Shown here in pieces: positions 33,001 through 36,000 of a stretch of DNA of 64,000 nt. The first letter of the stretch is position 1. The number at the start of each line of letters is the position of its first letter. A program made the position numbers. This stretch comes from a plasmid: NCBI RefSeq assembly GCF_057098645.1, contig NZ_JBXSPU010000002.1; one strand, written 5' to 3'.

Positions 33001-36000
33001 AAGATTCAAATTGAAGTATATCTATCTGTCATTTTTGCAAATGACATGCGGTAGCATAACGTTCCGGGGCCTCCTGTGCCGTCATGCGTGACGACATTGA
33101 CCAGCCAATAACGGCACGTGACCACAGCCAGATACGGCCAGCCTTCATCCGTACGTAAATATGTGATGACTCCCGCCCACTTCTGGTTCGGGCCACTGGC
33201 GTAAAAATCCTGCTCCAGCAGATTTTCTGACACAGGCTGGCTGTGTGCGCAGTAACAGACCGGACTGAAATTCCAGGAAGCTTTTGCCCTCAGTCCGTGA
33301 CGGCGCAGGCTTTCCGTCACGGTTTTTACTTTAAAATGGTAACCCTGGGTACGCAGTTCATCCATCAGGCGTTGTGCATGACCGGGTAAAAGCAACGAGG
33401 ACAACGCTGTCGCAGTGCTGACGGAACTGCCGACGTGTACTTATCCTTATCCGCCACTGATATAAGACGGTAATTCACCATTTGGATTGTCCGCTCCACC
33501 CAACATGTTGTTTCCTTGAGGTTCTCACACCAGAAAGGACATCAGCATGCTGAGCAGAGAGGACTTTTACATGATAAAGCAAATGCGCCAGCAAGGTGCG
33601 TATATTGTTGATATTGCGACTCAGATTGGTTGCTCTGAACGAACAGTCAGACGTTACCTGAAATACCCGGAACCTCCGGCCAGAAAAACACGCCACAAAA
33701 TGGCCGAAATGGACTATATCGACATGCGTCTGGCTGAGAACGTCTGGAACGGCGAAGTTATCCTGGCGGAAATCAAAGCGATGGGTTATACCGGTGGCCG
33801 TTCCATGTTGCTTCGCCAGTTCAGGAAGACACCGGAGCAGCGCTTCACGCAGGAACACAGTCTGTTCTTCCGGTTGCTGAACCGTCGATATGAAAAAGCG
33901 AGCATCGTGCTGACGTCCAATAAAGGGTTCGCCGACTGGGGGAGAGATGTTCGGTGATAACGTGCTGGCAAAATATTCACCCAACGCATTGAGCGTAATA
34001 ATCTGACGCTACGCACCCGCATTAAGCGGTTGGCTCGTAAAACAATCTGCTTCTCACGCTCAGTTGAGATCCACGAAAAAGTGATCGGAGCGTTTATCGA
34101 AAAACACATGTTCTACTAATTGGATGCACCACCGAATACATTAATTTATATAACAACATCAAAATACATTTTAGGTTGTCGCTAATCAAAAATTATTAAG
34201 TGTTACATAATTAGAGGGTATACATATGATTCATCCTGGATCTTCTTTAGATAAAGCAATTAACAATACAAGAGTTAAAAATGTTAGTACTGATGTTAAA
34301 CATGGCCAAATTCAAGAGAGAAAAAGGAACTTTATCTATAAAAAAAATGATGATATCTCATCCAGATTTAAACTTTACAGTTCGCTCGTAAAGCAGAAAA
34401 ATGCGACAGAAGATGTTGTTCTAATAGGCAAAATGATTTTAGATGAAGTCAGAAGTTACAGAACCATACATAATGATCGAAATATCGTAAGTAACTCAGG
34501 AAACTGGAAAACATCTTTTTTATGTAATCTTGCTAGACTACTATATAGCATATTTAATGGTAGTAACTATTTTTGTTCCCGAGAGGGTGAAAATAATTCA
34601 TCCCCCAGTTCTACTCTACTTACTATACATCAGCCTGAAAGGCAGGAACTATTACAACAAAAGAGTATCAAACATTTATCAACTAGTAATAACATCGACG
34701 GATACATTAAAATAAGAAAAACAAGAGGCGCTGAAGATCAAACAACAACTATCTCTCAAAGTTTGATAATTAATGAGTTGTTAAATGGAGTTGATAGAAA
34801 TACCATCCCTTTTCAGAAAATAAGTGAGCTCAATGATATCATACATTCATATGAAAATATGCAAATTAAAAATAGTCGAAAAGGTATAGAAATACTTGTT
34901 AAGCAGGGAGAGCTGTTATCATCATTAATAAATGATAATAAAGGAAATAAACAATTATCAGACAACGCATCTAAAATAATAAACTTATTGGGTATAGAGT
35001 ATCAGTCACATAAAGTAGACATAGAGCCATTTATACATGCAGTATGGGTTGCTGGCGCACCTCCTGATAATACATTTTCATATATAACGGCATTTTTAAA
35101 TACATATAAAAATTATACCTACCTGCTCTGGATTGATCCTAATGCCTTTGGTGCGGCCAAGTTTAGTGGGATTTTAAAAAATATAGCGATGAATTATGCA
35201 ATTATGCGTTTGAGAAGAACGAATCCACATTTAGCGGAAGAAATGAATGAAGTGATATTAAAAATACAAAACATACAAAATGAAACTATAGAATTTAAGG
35301 AAACAAGAGAAAGATTGAAGGAACTTGAAAATAGATATAAATCATTAACAAGTGAAACTAAAGAAAAATTCAATGTTTTTTTTCTTGAGTCAATGATAGG
35401 TATGCAAGACAACTATTTTACATATTGTATATCAAACGGAATATCAAATACTGATGATATATCCAGACTTAACTTTTTAACTAACGTTTTAAAACTTTCA
35501 CCAGAAGTTCAAAATGACTTTAAATCTACAGTAGAGAAAAACAAAAGAGATATAGACTTATTAAAAAATATAATATCTCAAAAATTTGGGGATAGATTTC
35601 AACTGAGAGATATTAACACATTGGAGTCATTTAAAAAACCACAAGATTATTTTTTTTATCAACAAGAGATGCTATTAAGATGGAACTACGCCGCTGCATC
35701 AGATCAGGTAAGAATGAATATATTGAAAGAGTATGGAGGGATTTATACCGATACAGATATTCTTCCTGCATATTCAGATAAAGTATCACAGATAATAAAT
35801 GAAAAAAGTGATGATAAGAGGTTTTTTGAAGACTTAAAACTAAGAAGGATTATATCAGAATCTATTCTGTCTCTGATAAAAGGGGAAAAGTACTCAATTA
35901 AACATGATGGATTAGATGAAACAACACAAAATCAGTTAAATAACATATTGAGTGAAATAGAAAAACTGACGATAGATGATTATTTCAAACCCGTTGAGAC

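Follow-up and report, generated by a model that had tools for sequence, protein, structure and literature searches.

The window, the whole stretch of 64,000 nucleotides of plasmid DNA analysed here (RefSeq assembly GCF_057098645.1, contig NZ_JBXSPU010000002.1), carries toxB as a pseudogene. Three abutting remnants of insertion sequences lie immediately upstream of it, at positions 33056-34133. The initial annotation had described such a stack at nearly these coordinates, and reference alignments, Pfam and PGAP all confirm that it is real. The three remnants that were named are present, but three is too low a total: a Tn3-family end and an IS481-family remnant, both outside the interval first annotated, adjoin the stack directly on its left. 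The features of the region are as follows.

32833-32887, minus strand: terminal inverted-repeat remnant of a Tn3-family (TnEc1-like) element, with short matches in many plasmids
32886-33055, plus strand: IS481-family 3' remnant, recognized by homology, adjoining the IS3-like fragment at 33055/33056
33056-33461, minus strand: IS3-like internal fragment, IS3 nt 933->460, inside orfB (blastn and PGAP)
33452-33811, plus strand: IS21-family piece 1, ISEc62 nt 7-378, 90.3% identity, with helix-turn-helix (HTH) Pfam hits
33811-33857, plus strand: IS21-family piece 2, ISEc62 nt 909-955 (mid-istA), 93.6% identity over 47 nt, E ~1e-15
33851-33971, plus strand: IS21-family piece 3, ISEc62 nt 1797-1916 (istB fragment), 95.9% identity over 121 nt
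33967-34133, plus strand: last 167 bp (nt 600-766 of 766) of a young IS1 variant, with the insB C-terminus and the right repeat
34134-34225, plus strand: native AT-rich spacer containing the ribosome-binding site AGAGGG
34226-43538, plus strand: toxB, a pseudogene here (PGAP), ungapped 98.9% identity to pO157 toxB

Window 32800-34400 is 100% identical to the E. coli plasmid pCAU16175_2 (swine, China) and likewise to two plasmids from human isolates. Collinearity with pCAU16175_2 is limited to window 17098-44382, where identity is 99.97%. PGAP annotates four pseudogenes in the stack region of pCAU16175_2, and its feature names for the stack are the same under every full-length match, among the matches listed (complete genomes). 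Plasmid pO157 of O157:H7 Sakai (AB011549.2, 54.7-55.9 kb) is 99.0% identical over window 32800-34400, without indels. Homology to pO157 starts at window 32662, immediately to the right of an ISL3-family element, and continues into toxB without gaps. Left of 32662 the ISL3 element stands in place of pO157 sequence and is followed, further left, by IS630, IS66 and group II intron fragments (annotation of pCAU16175_2); the window is a non-O157-type plasmid sub-lineage. The part at ~17100-32600 holds, in the collinear pCAU16175_2 annotation, perC, frameshifted perA/perB-like genes, an EspF-repeat fragment, a large autotransporter gene and group II intron fragments, and by this gene content it looks like an EPEC-like virulence plasmid backbone, not pO157 itself. 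Other copies of the families found in the stack occur elsewhere in the window: a full-length IS21-like copy (14968-17098, 85% to ISEc62), a full IS3-like copy (18078-19335, 93% to IS3) and IS3 end fragments (13943-14189 and 7374-7446).

Anatomy of the remnants

The references used were full-length annotated copies: IS3 of DH5alpha (1258 bp), the IS1 variant of the ETEC6333 chromosome (766 bp) and, for IS21, ISEc62 in pTD225C4_139 (2125 bp, with the target duplication CTGT at its flanks). Pairwise alignment assigns each piece to the family originally proposed for it, with blastn E-values over the stack pieces from ~1e-15 (the 47-nt piece) to ~1e-149; identities and coordinates are thus read directly from the alignments. 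ISEc62, IS3 and the IS1 variant (transposase WP_085949012.1) are the closest full-length references found, and the remnants cover 25%, 34% and 22% of these elements, respectively. The pieces come from three unrelated IS families, and their alignments do not combine into one known composite element.

The IS3-like fragment has the identity and the minus-strand orientation first given to it, but its left edge lies at ~33056 and not at 33070, because window 33056-33073 matches IS3 nt 933->916. Its main part (IS3 nt 873->460 against window 33075-33460) is 83.8% identical over 414 columns (blastn, E ~1e-133), and relative to IS3 the fragment has three small deletions of ~42, 14 and 14 bp. Transposase homology, at the DNA level and in PGAP, places it in the IS3 family; PGAP calls it 'IS3 family transposase, frameshifted, missing N- and C-terminus'. 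It is not a complete mobile IS3, with nt 460-933 of 1258 present and both ends and orfA absent. Pfam gives no hit for the minus-strand ORF 33006-33404, the sole uninterrupted ORF of the piece, because the IS3 reading frame is disrupted by frameshifts. Left of ~33052, neither translated nor lenient DNA searches detect IS3 similarity, and the stretch there is IS481-family sequence.

The IS21-family remnant is internally deleted, as had been noticed, although by two internal deletions (ISEc62 nt 379-908 and 956-1796) and not one. Homology to both istA and istB (90-96% to ISEc62; Pfam IstB_IS21) establishes the family. Piece 1, which has a 12-bp deletion, comprises the left end minus its first 6 nt (TGTCAG/TGTTAG), the start of istA (33547) and the HTH region; piece 3, an 'ATP-binding protein' pseudogene in PGAP, lacks the last 209 nt of the element and the right repeat. 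Both termini are therefore gone, and neither a complete IS21 end pair (5'-TG...CA-3') nor intact istA and istB genes are found. In the unrelated plasmid pTD225C4_139 (2609-5838), an IS3-like element is interrupted by ISEc62, which is flanked by the target duplication CTGT, and the IS3 sequence around nt 460 (TGTCCGCCGCTGA) is similar to the left end of the IS21 family (TGTCAGCGCCAATGA; compare window 33446-33461). From this arrangement and this likeness, IS21-family elements may tend to land in, or recombine with, IS3 sequence.

The IS1 remnant is 99.4% identical to the full IS1 of the ETEC6333 chromosome (E ~1e-83). Its right inverted repeat is intact, ending ...TTGGATGCACCACC at 34133, so that the toxB ATG (34226) lies 92 bp downstream of the IS1 right end. 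Homology to InsB, seen also in the C-terminal peptide (Pfam DDE_Tnp_IS1, 91.5 bits, 7.5e-26), and the terminal inverted repeat identify the piece as IS1-family; the loss of nt 1-599 has taken with it the left repeat, insA and any left copy of a target duplication. All transposase genes in the stack are fragments, and the IS1 right end is the sole surviving IS terminal repeat. A match in an ETEC plasmid that reaches 25 bp beyond the IS1 end into the toxB flank was considered and set aside as loose AT-rich similarity.

On the left, the Tn3-family remnant reads GGGGGGCAGTTTGGATATCGAAAATTATTGTACGTTAAGG on the minus strand, with its outer end at 32885. Tn3-family ends typically follow a GGGG...ACGTTAAG pattern. 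Many plasmids carry matches to it of 38-55 bp at 89-97%, and in pAVS0947-B the match directly follows tnpR of a 'Tn3-like element TnEc1 family' transposon. Chromosomal copies in O157 and O111 strains match the IS481-family remnant at 86.8% identity, and an annotated IS481-family transposase gene matches it with its 3' end at 78%. Further left, window 32662-32832 has no match outside pO157-type plasmids. Over window 32662-33055 (394 bp) there are 0 differences to pO157, where ~4-5 are expected; the adjoining IS stack and toxB, by contrast, differ from pO157 by 1.1-1.5%. Identity beside such divergence could stem from a recent exchange whose breakpoint lay near 33056-33070.

Joints, distribution and history of the stack

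The joints, whether between two of the IS3, IS21 and IS1 pieces or internal to one, result from deletion, with 1-5 nt or more shared, and none is transpositional. Their bases can be read off directly. At the IS3/IS21 joint the crossover falls in CGCC(A/G)(C/G)TGA, which both parents resemble, with CGCC or more shared; the IS21 378/909 joint shares 1 nt, the IS21 955/1797 joint CA and the IS21 1916/IS1 600 joint GGCAA. These are typical short-homology deletions, and the one genuine transposon terminus among the three families of pieces is the IS1 right end at 34133.

Among 5426 complete E. coli genomes, 322 contain the whole block. The IS1/toxB joint and the toxB 5' sequence at an identity of at least 95% give counts of 322 genomes each, and 111 further genomes have toxB at 80-90% identity. 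Since block, joint and toxB 5' end each occur in 322 genomes, the block is inherited with toxB as a single unit. No indels separate the window from pO157 here, and the two diverge by 1.2-1.5% across the IS pieces, 1.1% across the spacer and 1.08% across toxB; the block was thus complete before the window and pO157 sub-lineages split, and was then inherited with toxB. As the block diverges like the spacer and toxB, without indels, and its transposase genes are all fragments, we infer that it is neutral.

The pO157 lineage (lineage a) was compared with three further toxB lineages: b (O145 pRM8843-C1 and pUTME-12-2), c and d. IS21 is absent in b, c and d. In all three, toxB is preceded at short distance by an AT-rich 3' remnant of an old IS1-family element, listed here by its coordinates, and beside that remnant lies a minus-strand IS3-like element.

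L007 4737-4981, L014 2958-3236 and L017 3001-3230 (lineages b, c, d): old IS1-family remnant

In lineage c the intact left end of the IS3-like element abuts the old IS1 at ~nt 455, a genuine IS3-into-IS1 insertion. The IS481/IS3 joint (window 33055/33056) is common to all four toxB lineages, so the IS3 fragment of the window is the same ancestral copy as in b, c and d. In b, c and d the IS3-like copy is split at nt 718-722 by an ISL3 element that the pO157 lineage lacks there. No full-length relative of the old IS1 remnant was found among 5.8 billion proteins, and in E. coli it occurs as short remnants alone; it may have travelled with toxB from an AT-rich donor.

The old remnant and the IS1 of the window are distinct. 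Outside the terminal 40 bp their aligned identity is ~48%, and in a multiple alignment the young IS1 ends 10 bp downstream of the end of the old remnant (12 flanking bases, of which 8 match lineage c). In the pO157 lineage, the old IS1 end has been replaced by the end of a second, young IS1. A single shared IS1 insertion, later converted by the young IS1, is less likely, because ~48% identity is too little for homologous exchange; since the young IS1 is placed by 12 flanking bases, one shared insertion followed by sequence replacement could still account for the arrangement.

The scaffold itself is directly visible in the other lineages, and the comparison shows that the common ancestor of the lineages already had, upstream of toxB, a minus-strand IS3-like element together with the 3' remnant of an IS1-family element; the IS21-like pieces and the young IS1 were added in the pO157 lineage alone. 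The simplest reconstruction of the present arrangement has six steps. An old IS1-family element would first have come to lie ~100 bp upstream of toxB (step 1). The IS3-like element would then have inserted into this old IS1, in the orientation opposite to toxB (step 2), and an IS481-family piece would have become joined to it at IS3 nt 933 (step 3). In the pO157 lineage only, an ISEc62-like IS21-family element would have entered the region (step 4), and a young E. coli-type IS1 would have inserted, apparently 10 bp downstream of the old IS1 end (step 5). Finally, deletions would have removed the two internal IS21 segments, and a further deletion of ~1.6 kb, reaching from IS21 nt 1916 as far as nt 599 of the young IS1, would have eliminated the right end of IS21, IS3 nt 459-1 and the old IS1 remnant, along with the greater part of the young IS1 (step 6). 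The order of steps 4-6 and the original insertion point of IS21 are what we infer from the pieces that survive. The proposal that successive insertions and deletions occurred at one site is in this way both borne out and refined, by the three IS families, the deletion joints and the lineage comparison.

The spacer, the toxB promoter and the role of the stack

At 34134, coinciding with the IS1 right end, the GC content drops from ~50% to 27-32%, a sharp step that fits a foreign module bounded by IS debris. In the window toxB has a nonsense change (TCA->TAA) at codon 3010 (43253-43255), which leaves an ORF of 3009 codons out of 3169; the homology to pO157 toxB extends as far as 43538 (toxB nt 9313 of 9510), and IS91-family debris comes next. 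The last 80 bp of the spacer align across the four toxB lineages, with 94-96% identity among b, c and d and 85-89% against lineage a. For the toxB coding sequence the corresponding identity among b, c and d is 96-97%, whereas between the IS1 remnants of b and c it is 83% in the terminal 40 bp and 91% in the remainder. The spacer is conserved much like toxB and the IS1 end is not specially conserved, which places any constraint in the spacer and not in the IS end. The spacer at 34134-34225 is therefore the likely site of toxB regulatory signals, as judged from conservation, and with the constraint so located the stack is regarded as inert debris.

We consider it highly probable that the stack is non-functional mobile-element debris at the left boundary of a horizontally acquired AT-rich toxB module, formed by nested transposition and short-homology deletions and passively inherited with toxB as one block. 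On the same conservation pattern, toxB most likely uses signals in its own 92-bp spacer.

The initial annotation had suggested outward promoter activity from the IS pieces toward toxB, and this did not find support. If the pieces drove or contributed to toxB transcription, they would do so through a hybrid promoter with a -35 element in the IS1 end, or by read-through from the IS21 and IS1 remnants. The geometry would allow it: the IS21 and IS1 pieces point in the direction of toxB transcription, only 92 bp separate the IS1 end from the ATG and, on the plus strand between these pieces and toxB, there is one terminator-like site, a weak one (33583-33601). Hybrid promoters created by IS1 insertions were reportedly described by Prentki et al. 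in 1986. However, the window has no sigma-70-like site aimed at toxB at the scan threshold, and the 3 sites that the scan finds in all are no more than the 3.4 expected from shuffled sequence. The best lenient matches in the window reach 7-8 of 12 positions: TATTCA-17-AATAAT inside IS1 (8/12) and TTGGAT-16-TAATTT at the IS1 end (7/12; read by eye). The better site in lineage b (TGGATA-16-AATAAT, 9/12), which spans the old IS1 end and its flank, speaks for a hybrid promoter there, but it is not conserved in lineages a and c. Moreover, as seen above, the terminal 40 bp of IS1 are less well conserved than the rest of the remnant, and less than the spacer. Lineages with an intact toxB do without the IS21 part, which is thus dispensable. 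The Rfam scan of 32500-34500 returned nothing but a chance snoRNA-like match (E = 0.42), and the literature searched in full text, including a transcriptome paper, contains no mapped toxB transcription start or promoter. A contribution of the IS pieces to toxB transcription is, on balance, unlikely.

A stronger version would have toxB transcription depend on the IS1 end, by a hybrid promoter or read-through, with the IS1 terminus always retained for that reason. An IS1-family right end does lie upstream of toxB in all four lineages, at ~90-115 bp in every lineage examined; we hold such dependence to be less probable still.

In another reading, the block would be one arm of a functional composite transposon or of another mobilisable unit that moves toxB. 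IS material is present on either side of toxB (downstream, IS3/IS629 in pO157 and IS91-family in the window) and block and toxB always occur together, but there is no intact transposase gene, the single genuine IS terminus (the IS1 right end) has no partner and the flanking elements are of different families, so that neither the same IS twice nor matching functional ends surround toxB; this reading is scarcely tenable. That the chimeric ORF 33547-33957 (136 aa, IstA HTH plus IstB fragment) encodes a functional small DNA-binding protein is just as hard to credit: it is open, starts at the native istA start codon, is annotated as a CDS in pO157 Sakai, scores for Pfam IstB_IS21 (30.7 bits, cut-off 24.1) and HTH families and is conserved in 322 genomes, yet it is the product of two random deletions that fused out-of-context segments, its HTH hits are below the Pfam cut-offs, its 1.2% divergence from pO157 is no lower than that of its surroundings and PGAP treats the region as pseudogenes.

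Inert debris that marks the edge of the toxB module thus remains the preferred account of the stack. As such it is a useful lineage marker: the pO157-type toxB module is defined by deletion joints found in it alone, and all toxB lineages are tied to one ancestral acquisition by the older IS3/IS1 scaffold. It also illustrates how virulence-plasmid mosaics grow by nested insertion and short-homology deletion. Greater importance would attach to it only if the IS end were needed for toxB expression, which the evidence does not favour; otherwise it is of little importance.

Relation to known systems

IS debris upstream of toxB is already known, from the ORF annotation of pO157, the PGAP pseudogenes and published descriptions of toxB and pO157. 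A published comparison describes toxB as 'nested between IS elements (IS3, IS21, and IS629)' (PMC7175801), and pO157 has been characterized as a heterogeneous mosaic with IS elements near virulence segments (PMC2811833). Added here are the base-level anatomy and the layered history of the stack.

pO157 Sakai has the same block, and its record annotates an 'IS3 transposase Tra5' ORF and an 'IS21 transposase' ORF; the IS1, IstB, IS481 and Tn3-end pieces go unmentioned in that old annotation. Unlike pO157, the window has the ISL3 element left of 32662 and a toxB pseudogene. The likeness to IS1-created hybrid promoters lies in the IS1 end near a gene and its -35-like TTGGAT; in contrast to them, the window has no well-spaced -10 and the candidate site is not conserved. 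On large enterobacterial virulence plasmids, virulence modules have mosaic boundaries rich in IS elements, and the stack upstream of toxB is no different in kind.
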